DNA from: Candidatus Woesearchaeota archaeon
GTDB taxonomy: Archaea; Nanobdellota; Nanobdellia; Woesearchaeales; ARS49
NCBI GenBank assembly: GCA_014729505.1
Contig: WJJS01000001.1
Coordinates: 12,938-76,937, forward strand
Direction of reading: 5' to 3'
Length of the DNA: 64,000 nt
Of this stretch, positions 3,929-54,179 are shown piece after piece. Both the position numbers and the translations under genes were made by a program. Within the stretch, counting starts at the first letter, position 1. Every line of letters starts with the position of its first letter. Below the pieces are notes generated by a model, which had not been told where the DNA came from, made no database searches, and was given only the letters and a program-made list of their open reading frames with translations.

Positions 3929-6550
3929 TCAGTATTTCCTGAACAGCTTCACGATTTCGCCGAAAATCAAAACACTGGACGCTACAGCAGCAGCAATCAT
4001 CCAATCCATAAATGAAAGCGGAATCGTCTCAAAAAGAGTATTGAAAATACCAAGATGCACACTTGCAATTTGCAAACCAAAACTGAGCAACACCGCACCA
4101 ATCAACCATTTGTTAGACCATAACCCTACCGTAAAAATTGATTTCGTCTCAGAACGCTGATTAAGCACGTTAAACAACTGGAAAAGAACCAAGGTAGTAA
4201 AAGCCATCGTTTGCGCATATGTTTTATTCACCTCAGGCTCGTACCATTCAAACACAAAAAGAGTGCCAGCCATCATCAAAAGGCCAATAAACAACATAAG
4301 ACCTGCCCTGCTCTTGTTAACAATCTTTTCATCAATATCGCGAGGCTTTCGCTCCATAACTCCCGGTTCTTTAGGATCAACACTTAAACTCGTCGCAGGC
4401 AATAAATCAGTGGCAAGATTAATCCACAAAATCTGTCTTGCAGTTAACGGATCAATAAGGCCGAGAAGCGTTGCCACAAAAATAGTCAAAATCTCGCCGA
4501 CATTGCTTGATAACAAGTATATGACAAACTTCTTGATGTTATCATAAATAACGCGACCTTCTTCAACTGCACGAACAATAGTTGCAAAATTATCATCGGC
4601 AAGAATCATATCGCTGGCCTGACGAGAAACATCAGTACCAGTGATACCCATTGCAATGCCAAGATCAGCCTTCTTTAAAGCAGGAGCATCATTAGCACCG
4701 TCACCCGTCATAGCAACAATATGCCTGTTCTTACGCAGTGCATCGACAATATGCAGTTTATCCTCTGGATTAACACGGGCATAAATACTAATCTTTTCAA
4801 CATCACGCGAAAGATTGATAGACTCAAGCTCTACACCCTCAATAGCCCTGCCCTCAAGACCAATCTGTTTACCAATCGCTTTAGCAGTACCGAGATGATC
4901 GCCAGTAATCATCACCACCTTGATACCTGCAGCATTGCACGTCTTAATTGCTTTTTTAACCTCCTCTCGAGGAGGGTCAATCATGCCCTGCAACCCAATA
5001 AAGATCATGCTCTTTTCAATATCATCATGACTCAATTCATCCTTGAACTCCTTATAACAAAAACCAAGAACGCGCAAAGCCTGACTGGTAAATTCATCAT
5101 TTGTTTCAAGAATATGATCCCGATCCTCTTTAGTCAGCCGACGAACCTTTCCATCAACCAACATATGAGTACAAAAACCAAGCACCACTTCAGGAGCGCC
5201 CTTCGTATACGCCGTCTTCTTACCTTCAAAAGTGGAATGAATCGTCGTCATACACTTGCGTTCAGAACTAAAATCGATTTCATCAACGCGCGTATTATCA
5301 GAACGCACCTTGTCAAGATCAATACCTGACTTTGCTGCACTGACCAATAAAGCACCTTCAGTAGGGTCACCGACAATACTATGACGGCCCTGCTCCACAT
5401 CAAGCTGGGCATTATTGTTCAACACTCCTGCACGCAATAACGTATCAAGAGAGGATGTCTCTTTGGAAAAATCACCCTTTGGTTCATAACCAGAACCAGT
5501 TACCTGAACCACCTGTCCATCAACATACAGTTTTTTAACAGTCATCTCGTTATGCGTCAGCGTACCCGTTTTATCGGTACAAATCACCGTACACGCGCCC
5601 AGCGTTTCAACACTTGGAAGCTTGCGCATCAACGCCTTCTTCTTAGCCATGCGCTGCACGCCAAGAGCAAAAGCAATAGTAACCACTGCAGGCAAACCCT
5701 CAGGAATAGCAGCGACTGCAAGGGCAACAGCCTTTTCAAACACTTCAAGAAGATTTTTACCCAACAACACATCAACGCCAATCATCACCATAGCGATCAA
5801 GACCACCGCAGCAGTAAGCTGATATGCCAGTTTCTTGAGATCCTTTTGTATCGGCGTGGGCTCGCTTTTTGTCTTTTTGAGCATAGTTGCAATCTTACCG
5901 ATCTCAGTACGCATGCCAGTAGAAGTGACAACCGCCTTGCCGTGACCGGCAGTAACTGTCGTGCCAGAAAACACCATATTCTTCTGATCACCAATAGACA
6001 AACGATCAGCAATTCTCTTCACATCCTTTTTAACAGGAACAGATTCCCCGGTCAAAGCCGCTTCCTGCGTTTGCACATTCACCGCATCAATAAGACGAGC
6101 ATCTGCAGGCACAATATTACCTGTCTCCAGCACAATAATATCGCCCTTCACCACTTCTTCAGCAGGAATTTCGCGCCGACGACCATCACGAATAACAATG
6201 GCCTTAGGACTCACCATCTTACGCAATGCTTCAATAGATTCCTCGGCCTTATACTCCTGCCAAAAACCAAACAACGCATTAGCAATAACAACAATTGTAA
6301 TAACGTAAAAATCAATAAACTCTTGTAAAAACAAAGAAATACCCATCGCTGCCAAGAGAATCCAGACAAGAGGACTTGTAAACTGATGCAAGAAGATCAC
6401 AAACGGACTTATCTTCTTTTCACGCTCAAGAGCATTTTTACCAAACTTTTGCAAACGCTCCTTAGCCTGAGATTGTGATAATCCTTCCTTAGAAGAAGCA
6501 ACCTTATCAAATACCTTCTCCAAAGGCAGTTGATACCACTCTTTTTCCAT
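3929..6550 (-). CDS. P-type cation-transporting ATPase, type IIA (Ca2+ pump, PacL/SERCA-like)
   Basis: 873-aa ORF with ALTGESVPV (TGES), [10 protein letters not shown] phosphorylation site, MITGDH and [20 protein letters not shown]. Confidence 0.9.
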
Positions 6551-17605: not shown

Positions 17606-17700
17606 GGGCCGGTAGCTCAACCTGGTAGAGTGCTCCGTTGCGATGCTTTCGCCCATCGACAGCGAGGTCCGATCTCACTTGCGTGAGATCCGACAGTTTT
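17606..17700 (+). ncRNA. Truncated tRNA-Ala 5' copy (35 nt, positions 1-34) fused to a conserved two-hairpin element, then a T4 run
   Basis: 17606-17640 is identical to 17730-17764. 17641-17696 holds CGATG-N8-CATCG and GTCCGATCTCAC-TTGC-GTGAGATCCGAC. The element recurs at 20047-20108 and partly at 22438-22462. An A/T-rich TATA-like box lies at 17573-17580. Confidence 0.6.
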
Positions 17701-20032: not shown

Positions 20033-20108
20033 GGTGGCGGAGTGGCATATTCCGATGTTTTCCGCCATCGACACGGAGGTCCGATCTCGCTTGCGCGAGA
20101 TCCGACGG
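20033..20108 (+). ncRNA. Truncated tRNA-Met 5' copy (14 nt) fused to the conserved two-hairpin element
   Basis: GGTGGCGGAGTGGC (20033-20046) repeats 20133-20146. The element at 20047-20108 has hairpins CGATG-N8-CATCG and GTCCGATCTCGC-TTGC-GCGAGATCCGAC. Confidence 0.6.
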
Positions 20109-20135: not shown

Positions 20136-20253
20136 GGCGGAGTGGCTTAGCCTGGTTAGAGCACCGCGCTCATAGGTCATACCTTTGAGCACTGAGCTTT
20201 CGAGCTATGACGAAGAAACGCGGGGGTCACGAGTTCAAATCTCGTCTCCGCCA
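20136..20253 (+). tRNA. tRNA-Met/Ile2-type (anticodon CAT) with a 43-nt canonical intron (37/38)
   Basis: Acceptor GGCGGAG/CTCCGCC, anticodon arm CCGCG-CTCATA[intron]A-CGCGG, T arm ACGAG-TTCAAAT-CTCGT, discriminator A, T6 run after. G1:C72 argues against an initiator. Confidence 0.8.
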
Positions 20254-22755: not shown

Positions 22756-22837
22756 GCCGACGTCGCATAATCTGGTATTGCGCCGGTCTTGAAAACCGGT
22801 TCCCTTGGGTATCCCGGTTCAAATCCGGGCGTCGGCG
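22756..22837 (+). tRNA. tRNA-Ser (anticodon TGA), no intron
   Basis: Acceptor GCCGACG/CGTCGGC, anticodon arm CCGGT-CTTGAAA-ACCGG, long variable arm TTCCCTTGGGTAT, T arm CCCGG-TTCAAAT-CCGGG, discriminator G. Confidence 0.85.
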
Positions 22838-22891
22838 TTTCTATGACGCGAAAGCGTCATCCCATTTTTGAAGTAGTGATTTGAACCGGGG
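22833..22891. repeat. 59-nt direct repeat, left copy (starts in the last 5 nt of tRNA-Ser)
   Basis: CGGCGTTTCTATGACGCGAAAGCGTCATCCCATTTTTGAAGTAGTGATTTGAACCGGGG is identical to 23751-23809. Confidence 0.9.
22843..22869 (+). terminator. Hairpin ATGACGC-GAAA-GCGTCAT plus T5 run after tRNA-Ser
   Basis: Perfect 7-bp stem and T-run. It lies inside the 59-nt direct repeat, so it recurs at 23761-23787. Confidence 0.5.
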
Positions 22892-23068
22892 CCAGTCAAG
22901 CTTTGCTTGACGTTGTCCTGGTTTCAAATCCGGGCGTCGGCGTTGTGGGCGCGTTAGCGCTCTTTTTTGTTGTTGTGATTTGAACCGGGGCCAGTCAAGC
23001 TTTGCTTGACGTTGTCCTGGTTTCAAATCCGGGTGTCGGCGTTGTGGGCGCGTTAGCGCTCTTTTTTT
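22876..23068 (+). repeat. Two tandem 99-nt units, each holding an inverted T-arm copy, a hairpin, a tRNA-Ser 3'-end-like segment and a hairpin + T-run
   Basis: Units start at 22876 and 22975, with one mismatch in about 90 nt. Each contains GATTTGAACCGGGG (reverse complement of the T arm) and CCTGGTTTCAAATCCGGG(C/T)GTCGGCG. Confidence 0.85.
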
Positions 23069-23135: not shown

Positions 23136-23336
23136 ATGCCAACAACTATCCAACTCAGCAAAGAAACCAAGAAGCTAATAAGCACGTTTGGTTCCAAAGA
23201 AGATACTTACGACACGATAATTAGAAGACTGTACAAATTAGCTGTTAAGGAGCAACTGAAAGAATTCTTGCTCTCATCAGAAGGAACAATGCCGATAGAT
23301 GAGGCGATTAAGAAAGCCAAGAAAAAATGGCAATAG
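23136..23336 (+). CDS. Putative type II antitoxin (archaeal VapB/DUF217-like)
   Basis: 66-aa ORF. TIQLSKETKKLISTFGSKEDTYDTIIRRL matches the short archaeal antitoxin pattern. It overlaps the downstream gene by 10 nt. Confidence 0.5.
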   Translation: MPTTIQLSKETKKLISTFGSKEDTYDTIIRRLYKLAVKEQLKEFLLSSEGTMPIDEAIKKAKKKWQ

Positions 23337-29999: not shown

Positions 30000-30107
30000 G
30001 CGCAGATAGTACAATGGCTAGTATAGCGGCCTTCCACTGCACGGCAGAAGCAAGCCGTTGATCCGGGTTCGAAAATGAATCTTTCATCGAATGTCCCGGT
30101 CTGCGCA
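30000..30107 (+). tRNA. tRNA-Gly (anticodon TCC) with two introns: 16 nt at 37/38 and 20 nt in the T loop (about 59/60)
   Basis: Acceptor GCGCAGA/TCTGCGC, anticodon arm GCGGC-CTTCCA[16]A-GCCGT, T arm CCGGG-TTCGAA[20]T-CCCGG, discriminator A, T6 run. Exons sum to 72 nt. Confidence 0.8.
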
Positions 30108-33807: not shown

Positions 33808-33917
33808 ACTAATCCCCCGTGTATACCATCACTATCACTTTCTTTTAAACGTTTCGTCTGCCCATGCAATGCAAAGACAATAATAAAGTTTATAGCAAAC
33901 GTCATGTTCTTACCAGT

Positions 33918-35107
33918 ATGCGCGTTTTTGAAAGAGGGGAACTGAGACTCTTATGGCCGTTTTATGCCGATTATCTACTATCACAACTACTCTTTTTTGC
34001 ACCAGCGTTTTACATCGTGTATTTTCTGGATATTGGCCTGTCCTTGTTTCAGTTAGGACTTGTTATGGCTGCAGCACCACTGGCAGGTCTGCTCTTTGAG
34101 ATTCCAACAGGAGCCGTAGCAGATCTGTACGGGAGAAAATTTTCAGTCCTGCTAAGCTTTCTACTGGTAGCAGCAGGTTATTTGCTTCTCTTCTTCTTTA
34201 CAAGTATCCCAGCACTTATTGCCATTTTTGCGTTAATCGGATTTGCAGGAACATTCTGGTCGGGAGCAAAAGATGCGTGGGTTGTTGATCTTATAGGAAA
34301 AAGAAAAACATTACTCCAAATTATTTTGCAAAAGCAGATTTTCTCAGCAGTCTTGGACTAGTCATATCAGGCATCCTTGGAGCGTTCATTGTTGAAGTCA
34401 TTGGCCTACGATCCATATGGTTATTTGCTGCAGGTGCGTACGCGATATCATTTGTAGTTCTACTCACAGCCCCTGAACGTTATCGCAGACGACACACTTC
34501 ATTTAGTCGAGCTCTTAAAACTGTAACACAACAAAGCGGGGATGCGTTACGATACTGTCGAATGCACCACATACTTTACGCATTTTTCATTGCAAGCGCT
34601 CTTTGGCTTATCGCAGGAGCAATAGGAGGAGTCATGGCATGGACACCCTTTCTTATCGAACTTGGTTTTGCAGAACAACACTTTGGCTACTTGTGGAGTG
34701 CGATGGCCGTAGTACAAATGATGGGACTTGCCATCTCACAATTCGCTCTAAAAACGATCTCGTCTCGAAAAGTGATCATTGTTGCCCAGTCATTGTTTGC
34801 TGCAACTCTCCTTGCCGTGTATTGGGTATCTTCACTGCCGTTTGCGTTGTTACTGGTACTGTTTAGCATCTTATTTGCCTCAGCAAAAGCACCTTCATTA
34901 AACGTGTTCTTTCATCGGTTTACTCCTTCATACATGAGAGCAACCATCGGTTCAGTCAAGGCAACACTCGGCGCAGCTATAGCCATACTCATGATGCCGA
35001 TTTCAGGACATTTTATTGACACTATAGGTGCTCAAAACGCATTATTTAGCGCGGGACTTGCATTACTGCCTGCAGTAGGGATATACCTGCTAATGAAAGA
35101 ACACTAA
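33918..35107 (+). pseudogene. MFS transporter interrupted by a frameshift near 34298-34321 (or a sequencing error)
   Basis: ORF 33864-34361 (TM1-4, ADLYGRKF) and ORF 34562-35107 (TM7-12) join if the reading frame shifts in the A5-G-A5 tract. The other frame then reads KNITPNYFAKADFLSSLGLVISGILG and continues. Confidence 0.6.
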
Positions 35108-40009: not shown

Positions 40010-40324
40010 ATGGGACATACCGTATGGAGCCAACGGATGAATGCAGAGCGCATCATCACAGAACTACTTCGTTACAAGAAAGCATTGCGAAGCGAACAAC
40101 AAGCACTGTTTGACGAATTACTGAAACGATCCATGAATCATCTCGGTACCATAAGTTACGCAAACAGCATGCACACCTGGGCATTACTGCTCTTATCAAT
40201 ACTACTAGAACAAGAACAACGCATAAAGAAACTAGAACATGTGGTTAATAGATACCTATCAAAAAAAGAACAAGATCGTCGTGTGGCTGAAAACGAAAAC
40301 GACGAATATGCATCGAACCTATGA
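40010..40324 (+). CDS. Hypothetical helical protein
   Basis: 104-aa ORF, 3 nt after the previous gene. Its last 86 nt overlap the polymerase start in another frame. Confidence 0.4.
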   Translation: MGHTVWSQRMNAERIITELLRYKKALRSEQQALFDELLKRSMNHLGTISYANSMHTWALLLLSILLEQEQRIKKLEHVVNRYLSKKEQDRRVAENENDEYASNL

Positions 40325-42794
40325 GTACTCTGTCACACTCTACGCACACGAAGATGCACGAGAATTCCTTACAACGAACAAGATTGCTTTTACAGAACAA
40401 CTCAAAAAAGATCCTTTTCGCAACAAGAAACATGTTCTTGCCATAACGTTATCATGCGAACGACTCGCACCATTTGTAAGATGGTTTGAACTCGGCACCA
40501 AACACCGCATACCGCTTTACAATGCAGATATCACGCCGGAACAACGCTTTCTTTACGAGAACAAGCTAGTACCGTGCAGCAACGTGCGAGACGTTGATGG
40601 GAGACTTGTACACGTCAACGAATCCGCACCACCGCTAAGCACTGTTCATTTGCGATGCGCCACACAAGGACCTATTACACGATTAGAATACCAGGATCAC
40701 ACTATCGTAGGCGAGGAACGAGAAGTACTCGCGCATTTTACGCAACGCTTCAGACAGGACGATCCAGATGTACTACTTATGCGACGAGCATACAAAGCAG
40801 TACCACATCTCTTTGAACGGTTACGTGCGAACGGATTGCACGTGCCTTTTCATCGATGGGATGAGATACCGCTGCGCCACCGCGGCGGCAAGACACACTT
40901 CAGTTACGGAAGAGTATATTATCAAGATCACTCGTTTCAACTGCGAGGACGATTACTCGTTGACACGGCAAGCAGTGTAGGATCAACATGCTCTGTACCT
41001 GCAATCATCGAACTTGCACAGCTCACAGGCACTCGATTCCAACGCGTAGCAGCACGCAGTTTCGGTGCCTCATTTCAACTTCAACTCGTCAAAGAACTGC
41101 TCGCCCAAGATCTGCTTGTGCCATACAAGGAAAAACCCTTTGATGAACCGCTGCGCATGACAGAGTTATTCGACGCAGACAGAGCAGGACATACCTTTGA
41201 TCCTCAACTAGGATTTCACAATGATGTTGTAGCAATAGACTTCTCAAGCATGTATCCATGGATCATCCACAACTACAACATCAGCGCAGATACCATACTC
41301 ACAAAAAAAGGAAAGAAGACCAAGATTCCTGCAGTACCAATTGATGTAACCACACAATATCAAGGAGTGATACCAAAAGCAATCAAACCATTGTTAGATC
41401 GACGCATGTACTACAAAAAACATCCGACGCCGGAAAACAAACGACGAGCAATAGGACTAAAAACACTGCTCGTGACCTGTTATGGTTATCTGCGATTTCG
41501 CGAATTTAAAATGGGACTTGCCACATCACACATGGCAATTTGTTCATACGCGCGAGAACTCCTCCTACAATCAGCAACGCTTGCAGAAGAACAAGGCTTT
41601 CGCGTCATTCACGGCATCATCGATTCACTCTACATATCAAAAAAAGACATTACCACAACAGAAGTCGAAACATTTCGAAAAGAACTAGAACACATGAGCG
41701 GTATACCCGTTGCCTGCGATGGCATCTTCAAATGGATCGTGTTTCTTTCACGACGACATGACAACACTGTCGGAGTGCCGGCCCGTTATTTTGGCGCATA
41801 TAAAAATGGTGGCATTAAAGCAAGAGGTATTGAAGTACGACAATCGAGTGCGCCGCTACTTATACGACGATTCCAACAAAACGTGTTAGAAGAGCTCGCA
41901 GCGTTTTCAACGAAAAGAGCGATACAGGATCACTTGCCACAAGTCATGAAACGCGCACGAGCAGTCCTGCACGATCTGCCTGCGACGCCACGAGAAGAAC
42001 TGTGTTGCAGAATACGCATCAGTAAGACCACGTATTCTCGAAACATTCCACAACGGCAAGTGATACGCTTGTTAACACAACAAGGGAGAGACATTATCGC
42101 TGGACAGGTCATACGGTTCTGGTACAGTGCGAATGGACCGTTACTAGTCGATATGACTGGAAGGCCAGACTACAAAAAATATCGCGATTTGTTATTACGC
42201 GCAATACACTCAGTGTACCAGCCTTTCGGTTATACTACCAAACAACTACAACACCTCCTATTAGACGAATATCAAAGCGTTCTGCAAGATTTTGCGCGAC
42301 AACAGATCCGCTACGAATACGTGCCTATGAAAAAACACTATGCACAAAAACGAGGACTGTCAGAGAGAATCCTGCGACAACGACTGGAACGACAAGGATG
42401 GACGGTGTGGCGCGGCGGCAGCATACATATTACTCGTTATGAAGAACTGTATCCCAACGTACGACGAAAGTACGAATTACTCATCCGTCTGCTTGACGAT
42501 CATAAGCCAGACACAAAAGAAATACTGCAATATTATTGCATGATACAGCACGGCATGCCAGATTTTCTCTGCTACAAAAATGGACGATTCAAATTTGTTG
42601 AATGCAAATTGCAATACGAGCAATTAAGTCATCGACAAAAACGCTGCATTATGAAGCTACAAGACCTGGGATTTGATGTGGAAGTTCACAAACTCGTTGA
42701 CAAACGCACAAAAATGAGAGAGGCACTAGTTGACATGTTTACCAATTGCAAAATAGTACGAGAACGACAACTAGCCCTACTCTCAACATGGTGA
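40239..42794 (+). CDS. Family-B DNA polymerase lacking recognisable exonuclease motifs, fused to a C-terminal VRR-NUC nuclease domain
   Basis: 851-aa ORF. Pol motifs: A VAIDFSSMYPW (D334), B KTLLVTCYGYL (K408), C HGIIDSLY (D462). No DxE, NxxxFD or YxxxD at the expected sites. The C-terminus (from about aa 700) reads ERQGWTVWR...GMPDFLCYKNGRFKFVECKLQYEQLSHRQKRCIMKLQDLGFDVEVH. Confidence 0.85.
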   Translation: MWLIDTYQKKNKIVVWLKTKTTNMHRTYEYSVTLYAHEDAREFLTTNKIAFTEQLKKDPFRNKKHVLAITLSCERLAPFVRWFELGTKHRIPLYNADITPEQRFLYENKLVPCSNVRDVDGRLVHVNESAPPLSTVHLRCATQGPITRLEYQDHTIVGEEREVLAHFTQRFRQDDPDVLLMRRAYKAVPHLFERLRANGLHVPFHRWDEIPLRHRGGKTHFSYGRVYYQDHSFQLRGRLLVDTASSVGSTCSVPAIIELAQLTGTRFQRVAARSFGASFQLQLVKELLAQDLLVPYKEKPFDEPLRMTELFDADRAGHTFDPQLGFHNDVVAIDFSSMYPWIIHNYNISADTILTKKGKKTKIPAVPIDVTTQYQGVIPKAIKPLLDRRMYYKKHPTPENKRRAIGLKTLLVTCYGYLRFREFKMGLATSHMAICSYARELLLQSATLAEEQGFRVIHGIIDSLYISKKDITTTEVETFRKELEHMSGIPVACDGIFKWIVFLSRRHDNTVGVPARYFGAYKNGGIKARGIEVRQSSAPLLIRRFQQNVLEELAAFSTKRAIQDHLPQVMKRARAVLHDLPATPREELCCRIRISKTTYSRNIPQRQVIRLLTQQGRDIIAGQVIRFWYSANGPLLVDMTGRPDYKKYRDLLLRAIHSVYQPFGYTTKQLQHLLLDEYQSVLQDFARQQIRYEYVPMKKHYAQKRGLSERILRQRLERQGWTVWRGGSIHITRYEELYPNVRRKYELLIRLLDDHKPDTKEILQYYCMIQHGMPDFLCYKNGRFKFVECKLQYEQLSHRQKRCIMKLQDLGFDVEVHKLVDKRTKMREALVDMFTNCKIVRERQLALLSTW

Positions 42795-46024: not shown

Positions 46025-46106
46025 TCCCCGCCCCCGGACTCAGCGTTAACCTGCGGTTAACTGGCTGCAGAAAACACTTCGTGTTTTTGCAGTGAACCAG
46101 GAACCT
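46025..46106 (-). repeat. Partial second copy of the tRNA-Tyr 3' portion (variable loop to 3' end) with a 52-nt insertion in the T loop
   Basis: Minus strand reads AGGTTCCTGGTTCA[52 nt, two hairpins]AGTCCGGGGGCGGGGA. It is preceded by TGAACCAGG, the reverse complement of the T arm. Confidence 0.65.
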
Positions 46107-46145: not shown

Positions 46146-46269
46146 TCCCCGCCCCCGGACTTGAACCAGGAACCTCGCGGTGACGGCTGACTCGCCTTCA
46201 CGTCTCGAGCGTTGCTCGGAATCAGTTGAGTTTCTACAGCCGCGCGCTCTACCATTGAGCTAGGCGGGG
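46146..46269 (-). tRNA. tRNA-Tyr (anticodon GTA) with a 52-nt canonical intron
   Basis: Acceptor CCCCGCC/GGCGGGG (the C1:G72 archaeal Tyr identity pair), anticodon arm CGCGG-CTGTAG[52]A-CCGCG, T arm CCTGG-TTCAAGT-CCGGG, discriminator A. Confidence 0.85.
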
Positions 46270-53901: not shown

Positions 53902-54025
53902 GCCCTGGTAGTGTAGTGGCCTATCATGAAGCCCTGTCGAGACGAAAACCGTCGCATAAAGGCTTCGACCCGGGTTCAAAGACGGCGTCGGGTTAACCGA
54001 TCCGCTGAAATTCCCGGCCAGGGCG
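53902..54025 (+). tRNA. tRNA-Asp (anticodon GTC) with two introns: 20 nt at 37/38 and 31 nt in the T loop (about 59/60)
   Basis: Acceptor GCCCTGG/CCAGGGC, anticodon arm AAGCC-CTGTCG[20]A-GGCTT, T arm CCGGG-TTCAAA[31]T-CCCGG, discriminator G. Exons sum to 73 nt. Confidence 0.8.
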
Positions 54026-54063
54026 TGTGCTCAGCATCCAGCATGCTGGGAGTATACAACAAA

Positions 54064-54179
54064 GGGCCGGTAGCTCAGCCTGGTAGAGCACCTGACTTTT
54101 ATGAAAGTCAAGGACATCAGGTGGTCGCGAGTTCAAAACGATCCCGCGTATGCGGTTCGTGAACGTCTCGTCCGGCCCA
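54064..54179 (+). tRNA. tRNA-Lys (anticodon TTT) with two introns: 14 nt at 37/38 and 28 nt in the T loop (about 59/60)
   Basis: Acceptor GGGCCGG/CCGGCCC, anticodon arm CCTGA-CTTTTA[14]A-TCAGG, T arm GCGAG-TTCAAA[28]T-CTCGT, discriminator A. Exons sum to 74 nt. Confidence 0.8.

Follow-up and report, generated by a model that had tools for sequence, protein, structure and literature searches.

Predicted tRNA genes with two introns each, at positions 37/38 and 59/60, in a Woesearchaeota-like archaeon

Results

Three tRNA genes carry a second insert in the T loop

The stretch of DNA analysed here, a 64-kb segment of an archaeal contig referred to below as the window, contains seven tRNA genes. 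Introns are found in five of the seven, for a total of eight. Three genes, all on the forward strand, are interrupted twice, once at the canonical position 37/38 and once within the T loop. The tRNA-Asp(GTC) gene (53902-54025) is made up of exons 53902-53939, 53960-53980 and 54012-54025, which join into a predicted mature tRNA of 73 nt; its canonical intron (53940-53959), placed by ARAGORN with the -i option, is 20 nt long and its T-loop intron (53981-54011) 31 nt. The tRNA-Lys(UUU) gene (54064-54179) yields a 74-nt tRNA from exons 54064-54101, 54116-54137 and 54166-54179, with introns of 14 nt (54102-54115) and 28 nt (54138-54165) in the anticodon and T loops, respectively. The tRNA-Gly(UCC) gene (30000-30107) has exons 30000-30036, 30053-30073 and 30094-30107, a 72-nt product and introns of 16 nt (30037-30052) and 20 nt (30074-30093). 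A previous sequence-only reading of this DNA had proposed that these three tRNAs are interrupted twice, and every one of its coordinates, intron lengths (20/31, 14/28 and 16/20 nt) and exon sums (73, 74 and 72 nt) proved correct.

Excision of both segments produced sequences that ARAGORN folds into standard cloverleaves for Asp(GTC), Lys(TTT) and Gly(TCC), with 7-nt T loops reading UUCAAAU in Asp and Lys and UUCGAAU in Gly. Removing the T-loop insert alone was sufficient for ARAGORN to detect each of the three genes with its canonical intron. When the T-loop insert was retained, no tRNA was called at the Asp, Lys or Gly locus. A TATA-like sequence, TTTAAATA, lies about 30 nt 5' of tRNA-Gly, and a T-run is found 3' of the gene. 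The tRNA-Asp and tRNA-Lys genes are separated by a 38-nt gap; no T-run follows the former and one follows the latter, an arrangement which suggests that the two are co-transcribed as a single Asp-Lys transcript. Removal of pairs of candidate motifs throughout the window disclosed no further disrupted tRNA; the sole extra candidate, located inside the EF-2 gene, was implausible and was discarded.

Two other tRNA genes of the window are preceded by a shared element. A 26-nt hairpin motif, CCGATCTC[A/G]CTTGCG[T/C]GAGATCCGAC, occurs exactly twice, at 17669-17694 and 20081-20106 (forward strand), 36 nt 5' of tRNA-Ala and 30 nt 5' of a tRNA with a CAU anticodon. The stems of the two copies show one compensatory difference, A-T in one and G-C in the other, and no copy would be expected by chance.

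The T-loop inserts fit a 3-4-3 bulge-helix-bulge motif

In all three T-loop inserts, bases 54-57 of the T loop (UUCR) pair at four of four positions with bases -6 to -3 of the intron (YGAA). The complementarity that had been reported between the 3' part of each intron and the upstream exon is thus real and resides exactly at these intron positions. The native T stem provides the outer helix and a hairpin within the intron the inner helix. Bases 58 and 59 together with the first base of the intron make up the 5' bulge; the two final intron bases and U60 make up the 3' bulge. The resulting geometry is that of a 3-4-3 bulge-helix-bulge (BHB) laid over both exon-intron junctions, conforming to the strict hBHBh' type in Gly (UUCG/CGAA, with a 5-bp inner helix) and Lys (UUCA/UGAA, inner helix present) and nearly so in Asp (UUCA at 54-57 with UGAA, bulges AA^G and AU^U), whose inner helix opens with an A.C mismatch. 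Gly and Lys were recovered by a scan for strict 3-4-3 geometry plus an inner helix, followed by ARAGORN, and Asp was recovered once the inner-helix requirement was dropped. As for the canonical introns, the motif is strict in Gly (CUUC/GAAG), has a weak inner helix in Lys (CUUU at 32-35 with AAGG) and can be drawn in Asp if a C32.U mismatch is accepted within the central helix.

The splice points had been thought ambiguous by 1-2 nt. This is so for the canonical introns of Asp and Gly but does not apply to the T-loop introns, where no shift of 1-2 nt yields the same mature sequence and the 3-4-3 geometry sets the junction at 59/60. A 5-bp stem capped by a 7-nt loop is common to the T and anticodon arms, and we infer from this geometry that 59/60 corresponds exactly, in structural terms, to 37/38.

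When the 3-4-3 geometry is imposed, 0.3-4.5 kcal/mol is lost compared with unconstrained folding; the penalty is 0.8-2.4 kcal/mol in the three T-arm introns. Left unconstrained, the Gly T arm adopts a minimum-energy fold that amounts essentially to the motif. In the Asp and Lys T arms, the unconstrained fold opens the 4-bp central helix and restoring it costs 2.2-2.4 kcal/mol; minimum-energy folding is therefore insufficient as proof of the motif, and the proof comes from geometry and covariation (see below). Folds of the whole precursors retained the acceptor stem and both extended arms together, indicating that the two motifs can form independently.

T-loop introns recur at the same locus in related archaea

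Directly downstream of the Asp-Lys pair lie rpoH, a split rpoB (B'' followed by B') and rpoA. A protein search with RpoB'' returned 58 loci, all from DPANN metagenome-assembled genomes that are labelled Woesearchaeota, Nanoarchaeota or Nanobdellota, or are mislabelled; the best identity was 75%. Judging from these matches, the host is evidently a Woesearchaeota-like DPANN archaeon. Among other protein-coding features of the window are an 851-aa ORF (40239-42794, forward strand) whose product has a family B DNA polymerase domain and, at its C terminus, a VRR-NUC nuclease domain, and two separate ORFs (33864-34361 and 34562-35107, forward strand) for the N- and C-terminal halves of an MFS transporter, whose gene may be split or frameshifted.

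The Asp-Lys pair 5' of rpoH is syntenic across the relatives. Their introns were scored by aligning only the mature exons of the window's genes to each locus. Of 41 tRNA-Asp orthologues, 27 have a T-loop intron, 17 a 37/38 intron and 5 a D-loop intron, and 6 have no intron; for the 49 tRNA-Lys orthologues, the corresponding figures are 16, 29, 23 and 7. Introns at 59/60 were also found in some tRNA-Tyr orthologues and in one tRNA-Gly(GCC) of the relatives. These counts bear out the earlier suggestion of a recurrent class of T-loop introns. The exons of the orthologues are 90-100% identical to those of the window, the Asp exons being identical at 73/73 positions in two loci (L038 and L039). Furthermore, the predicted spliced tRNA-Asp is identical at 71/73 positions to the uninterrupted tRNA-Asp of a third locus, L022. 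The T-loop introns of the relatives, 13-75 nt long in Asp and Lys genes and up to 96 nt in another tRNA, are mostly unalignable; they end with YGAAAG directly before a U, or with close variants of this sequence.

Some tRNA-Lys genes of the relatives contain three introns, in the D loop, at 37/38 and at 59/60 (L020, 5583-5731; L053, 494-642; L017, 737-852; L009, 5566-5746), and give clean cloverleaves once spliced. The D-loop intron of tRNA-Lys follows GCCTGG and ends with GGGCAA; it is present in 23 of the 49 orthologues and absent from the Lys gene of the window.

For the analysis of covariation, 46 junctions were defined from the exon alignment alone. Across this set, 98.1% of the pair cells are occupied by standard pairs. 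The pair between base 57 and intron base -6 is A-U in 17 cases, G-C in 10 and G-U in 3, and that between base 55 and intron base -4 is U-A in 26, U-G in 8 and C-G in one. In 500 shuffles the covariation never reached the level seen in the real alignment, and with the register displaced by one column the pairing fell to 55-65%. Compensatory changes of this kind indicate that the splice helix is under selection, as judged from the alignment, and argue in turn that the sites are really spliced and that the genes are not pseudogenes.

Standard finders overlook the genes, and chance does not account for the motif

Run with default settings on the window, ARAGORN called only tRNA-Ala and tRNA-Ser and missed Asp, Lys and Gly altogether. 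Allowing introns added the CAU tRNA (20136-20253, forward strand) and tRNA-Tyr (46146-46269, reverse strand). The Rfam model at its gathering threshold found four tRNAs in the window (Ala, Ser, CAU and Tyr) and again missed the other three; a permissive search added just one partial match (54071-54147), which at 25.4 bits falls under the 29-bit cut-off. The CAU gene has a 45-nt canonical intron that ARAGORN misplaces, leading to its being mis-called as Ser(cga).

A finder for T-loop introns was set up that looks for a T stem, a UUCR-type loop at 54-59, a 3' T stem strand and a 7-bp acceptor stem, with confirmation by ARAGORN. Applied to the window and the 58 related loci, it returned 61 confirmed genes, 43 of which have all four central-helix pairs. 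The same finder confirmed no gene in a decoy made of the reversed sequences, despite 3788 structural candidates as opposed to 3365 in the real ones. By a rough estimate rather than a computation, the probability of a 4/4 central helix arising fortuitously in three of three inserts is about 1e-5 or less. Taken together with the close match between spliced tRNA-Asp and its uninterrupted orthologue in L022, the empty decoy and the rarity of the helix exclude chance as an explanation.

Two other approaches were tried and set aside. Excising two segments by brute force, without any structural criterion, and passing the products to ARAGORN gave thousands of solutions with arbitrary anticodons and was replaced by motif-guided splicing. 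Direct ARAGORN calls in the relatives gave false cloverleaves for the Asp gene of L021 and the Lys gene of L004 and were replaced by the exon-only alignment. At these two loci (256-377 and 5637-5742, respectively), ARAGORN reports intron-less, mismatched cloverleaves where the real 59/60 introns are 47 nt and 31 nt long. False cloverleaves of this sort constitute a silent source of mis-annotation.

Duplicated tRNA 3' ends follow tRNA-Tyr and tRNA-Ser

The intact tRNA-Tyr gene of the window (coordinates above) has no T-loop intron, and several relatives have a tRNA-Tyr with one at 59/60. At 40 nt downstream of the intact gene, past a T-run, lies a 3'-terminal fragment of tRNA-Tyr (46025-46106, reverse strand) which, when aligned to the intact gene, extends from about position 44 to position 73 and contains a 52-nt insert. 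The fragment reads ...CCUGGUUCA + 52 nt + AGUCCGGGGGCGGGGA. UUCA and AGU flank the insert; since the intact gene has an uninterrupted UUCAAGU at this point, the insert lies at 57/58. A 3-4-3 motif could not be drawn around it: its own ends do not pair with bases 54-57 in register. The 52 nt fold as two unrelated hairpins, and the intact Tyr T loop joined to the 3' end of the fragment formed only one of the four central-helix pairs. Thus, the fragment, which had been listed as interrupted at 59/60, is not a member of the 59/60 intron class. It could represent a displaced original 3' end of the gene. An inverted copy of the 5' strand of the T stem plus the loop, CUUGAACCAGG, is found 5' of the fragment.

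Two tandem units of about 99 nt (22868-23065, forward strand) that resemble tRNA-Ser 3' halves lie 3' of tRNA-Ser(TGA) (22756-22837). In each unit one can recognize a portion of the anticodon loop, the stem strand ACCGG, a variable-arm hairpin that is longer, the T arm and the 3' strand of the acceptor stem; a hairpin plus a T-run come after it. Beyond the units is a small ORF resembling DUF7557 (23136-23336). The units may have arisen as scars of integration sites or may constitute a repeat derived from a tRNA. Pfam scans of the window's ORFs showed no integrase or mobile-element gene beside either the Tyr or the Ser fragments. Duplicated 3' fragments in the window follow Ser and Tyr only, and both of these genes are without a T-loop intron.

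Discussion

Proposed processing of the twice-interrupted genes

The data above make it very probable that all three loci represent functional tRNA genes of an archaeon and that each has two BHB introns spliced by proteins, one at 37/38 and the other at 59/60. In the precursor, as we picture it from sequence and predicted folding, the acceptor stem, the D arm and the two interrupted arms would fold independently of each other. The T arm would present its native 5-bp stem (49-53/61-65) as the outer helix, followed by the 4-bp central helix and the inner hairpin of the intron. In each of the two motifs the splicing endonuclease (EndA) would then cleave at the two bulges, and the three exons would presumably be joined by an RtcB-type ligase, so that the T loop would form only after splicing and ligation. 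Neither EndA nor a ligase was detected among the products of some 50 ORFs of the 64-kb window in Pfam scans. The sequence-only reading held that introns of this sort require an endonuclease of broad specificity. Such a requirement is not established here: two of the T-loop motifs are of the strict hBHBh' type and the third, in Asp, comes close to it, and strict EndA enzymes are those that require a strict 3-4-3 hBHBh' motif (PMC3239211). An alpha4 EndA with an extra L3 loop has been described in several DPANN lineages and linked to a greater degree of tRNA gene disruption (PMC5829648).

Alternative explanations

One could argue that the loci are decaying pseudogenes disrupted in the T loop, with functional copies elsewhere. 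Standard finders do reject all three, truncated tRNA 3' fragments also occur in the window, and coverage of the genome amounts here to 64 kb, leaving room for copies outside. This notwithstanding, we deem decay very unlikely, on account of exons that are up to 73/73 identical to those of the orthologues while the introns are mostly unalignable, of a splice helix kept through compensatory changes, and of an Asp-Lys-rpoH order that is conserved in relatives in which the same genes are interrupted. The TATA-like box 5' of Gly and the T-run terminators after Gly and Lys also speak against it. It is less probable still, to the point of being scarcely credible, that the inserts are not introns but scars left by the integration of mobile elements at the T loop (att-site remnants). 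The 3' halves of tRNA genes are classic integration targets, and 3'-fragment duplications do accompany tRNA-Ser and tRNA-Tyr. However, the inserts measure just 20-31 nt, no duplicated tRNA 3' end is found near the Asp, Lys or Gly gene, the Pfam scans of the approximately 50 window ORFs showed no integrase, and scars would not be expected to display an exact 3-4-3 geometry or covariation.

A different question is how introns came to occupy these sites. The sequence-only reading had proposed that they spread by transposition; in this scheme the T-loop inserts would have moved recently from tRNA to tRNA, as proposed for Thermoproteales, and the three would derive from one ancestor intron. The recurrence of a single insertion site in three different tRNAs of one genome is in line with this idea, and so is one cross-tRNA pair in the relatives, the Lys intron of L019 and the Asp intron of L040, with z = 5.4. 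The latter similarity is borderline given some 1300 comparisons. Alignment of the six introns of the window, canonical and T-loop, showed no similarity beyond that of shuffled sequences; all 15 pairs fall inside the shuffle expectation (P 0.32-0.98). Among 52 T-loop introns, three of the four pairs with z of at least 5 are orthologous (L036/L044 Tyr, L017/L020 Asp and L010/L015 Asp), and the shared YGAA is dictated by the need to pair with the T loop, varying in concert with base 57. We thus consider recent transposition improbable. Since most of the similar pairs are orthologous, the pattern fits vertical inheritance with rapid divergence of the intron interior, following an old acquisition and accompanied by repeated loss, as far as the aligned sequences go.

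The observations can also be assembled into a broader scheme, in which a vertically inherited system of three intron sites (D loop, 37/38 and 59/60) would extend throughout the Woesearchaeota. The 59/60 site would be favoured owing to the exact mimicry of the anticodon arm by the T arm, and even an alpha4 EndA of strict specificity could suffice to splice it. Introns in the T arm would also protect the genes against integrative elements, and the Tyr fragment with its degenerate insert would be the original, intron-bearing 3' end, displaced by an intron-less one supplied by an element. We find this scheme, as a whole, rather unlikely.

Significance and relation to known systems

Introns at 59/60 have already been documented in archaea, and the mechanism is not new; by the standards of DPANN and Thermoproteales-type tRNA genes, it is ordinary. 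What is added here is a lineage-wide comparative picture, along with the realization that ordinary finders miss such genes or fold them wrongly. Three of the seven tRNA genes of the window escape both default ARAGORN and Rfam at the gathering threshold, and the same applies to many of the Asp and Lys genes of the relatives. Genes missed in this way explain part of the incomplete tRNA sets that have been reported in DPANN genomes (PMC5829648), and affect inferences on codon usage as well as estimates of completeness in such genomes. The tRNA survey of PMC5829648 took in one Woesearchaeota genome. The 45 orthologous 59/60 introns (13-75 nt), together with the intron-less orthologues, provide a comparative set for the study of intron gain and loss.

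The closest precedents come from ARMAN-2. Its pre-tRNA-Cys(GCA) has a 59/60 intron with a relaxed motif that is cleaved in vitro by ARMAN-2 EndA, and its pre-tRNA-Pro(GGG) is interrupted at 53/54 and 59/60, with a strict motif (PMC3239211); a later study made renewed use of the 59/60 substrate (PMC5829648). ARMAN-2 and the organism studied here have in common a DPANN affiliation, a T-loop intron exactly at 59/60, a BHB motif and multiple introns per gene, and the Pro(GGG) motif is of the same strict hBHBh' type as the T-loop motifs of Gly and Lys. They differ in lineage and in the tRNAs concerned, which are Asp, Lys and Gly in the window, with the combination of 37/38 and 59/60. The ARMAN-2 EndA is of the three-unit epsilon2 type.

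In Thermoproteales, tRNA genes have up to three introns and are served by dedicated models in tRNAscan-SE 2 (PMC8450103; see also Sugahara 2008 and Fujishima 2010, as cited in PMC8450103 and PMC3239211). The resemblance extends to the presence of up to three BHB introns per tRNA, to recurrent non-canonical sites and to the failure of ordinary finders, which miss or mis-annotate the genes. However, the Thermoproteales hosts are crenarchaeal and possess an (alpha-beta)2 EndA, and many of their motifs are relaxed. Moreover, transposition was inferred there from intron sequence similarity, and such similarity is absent among the introns of the window. Finally, the 59/60 introns share with the canonical archaeal 37/38 intron an identical 3-4-3 geometry, a 5-bp stem with a 7-nt loop and, presumably, the processing enzyme; unlike the canonical intron, they sit in the T arm, where they would block the T loop and the elbow of the tRNA before splicing.
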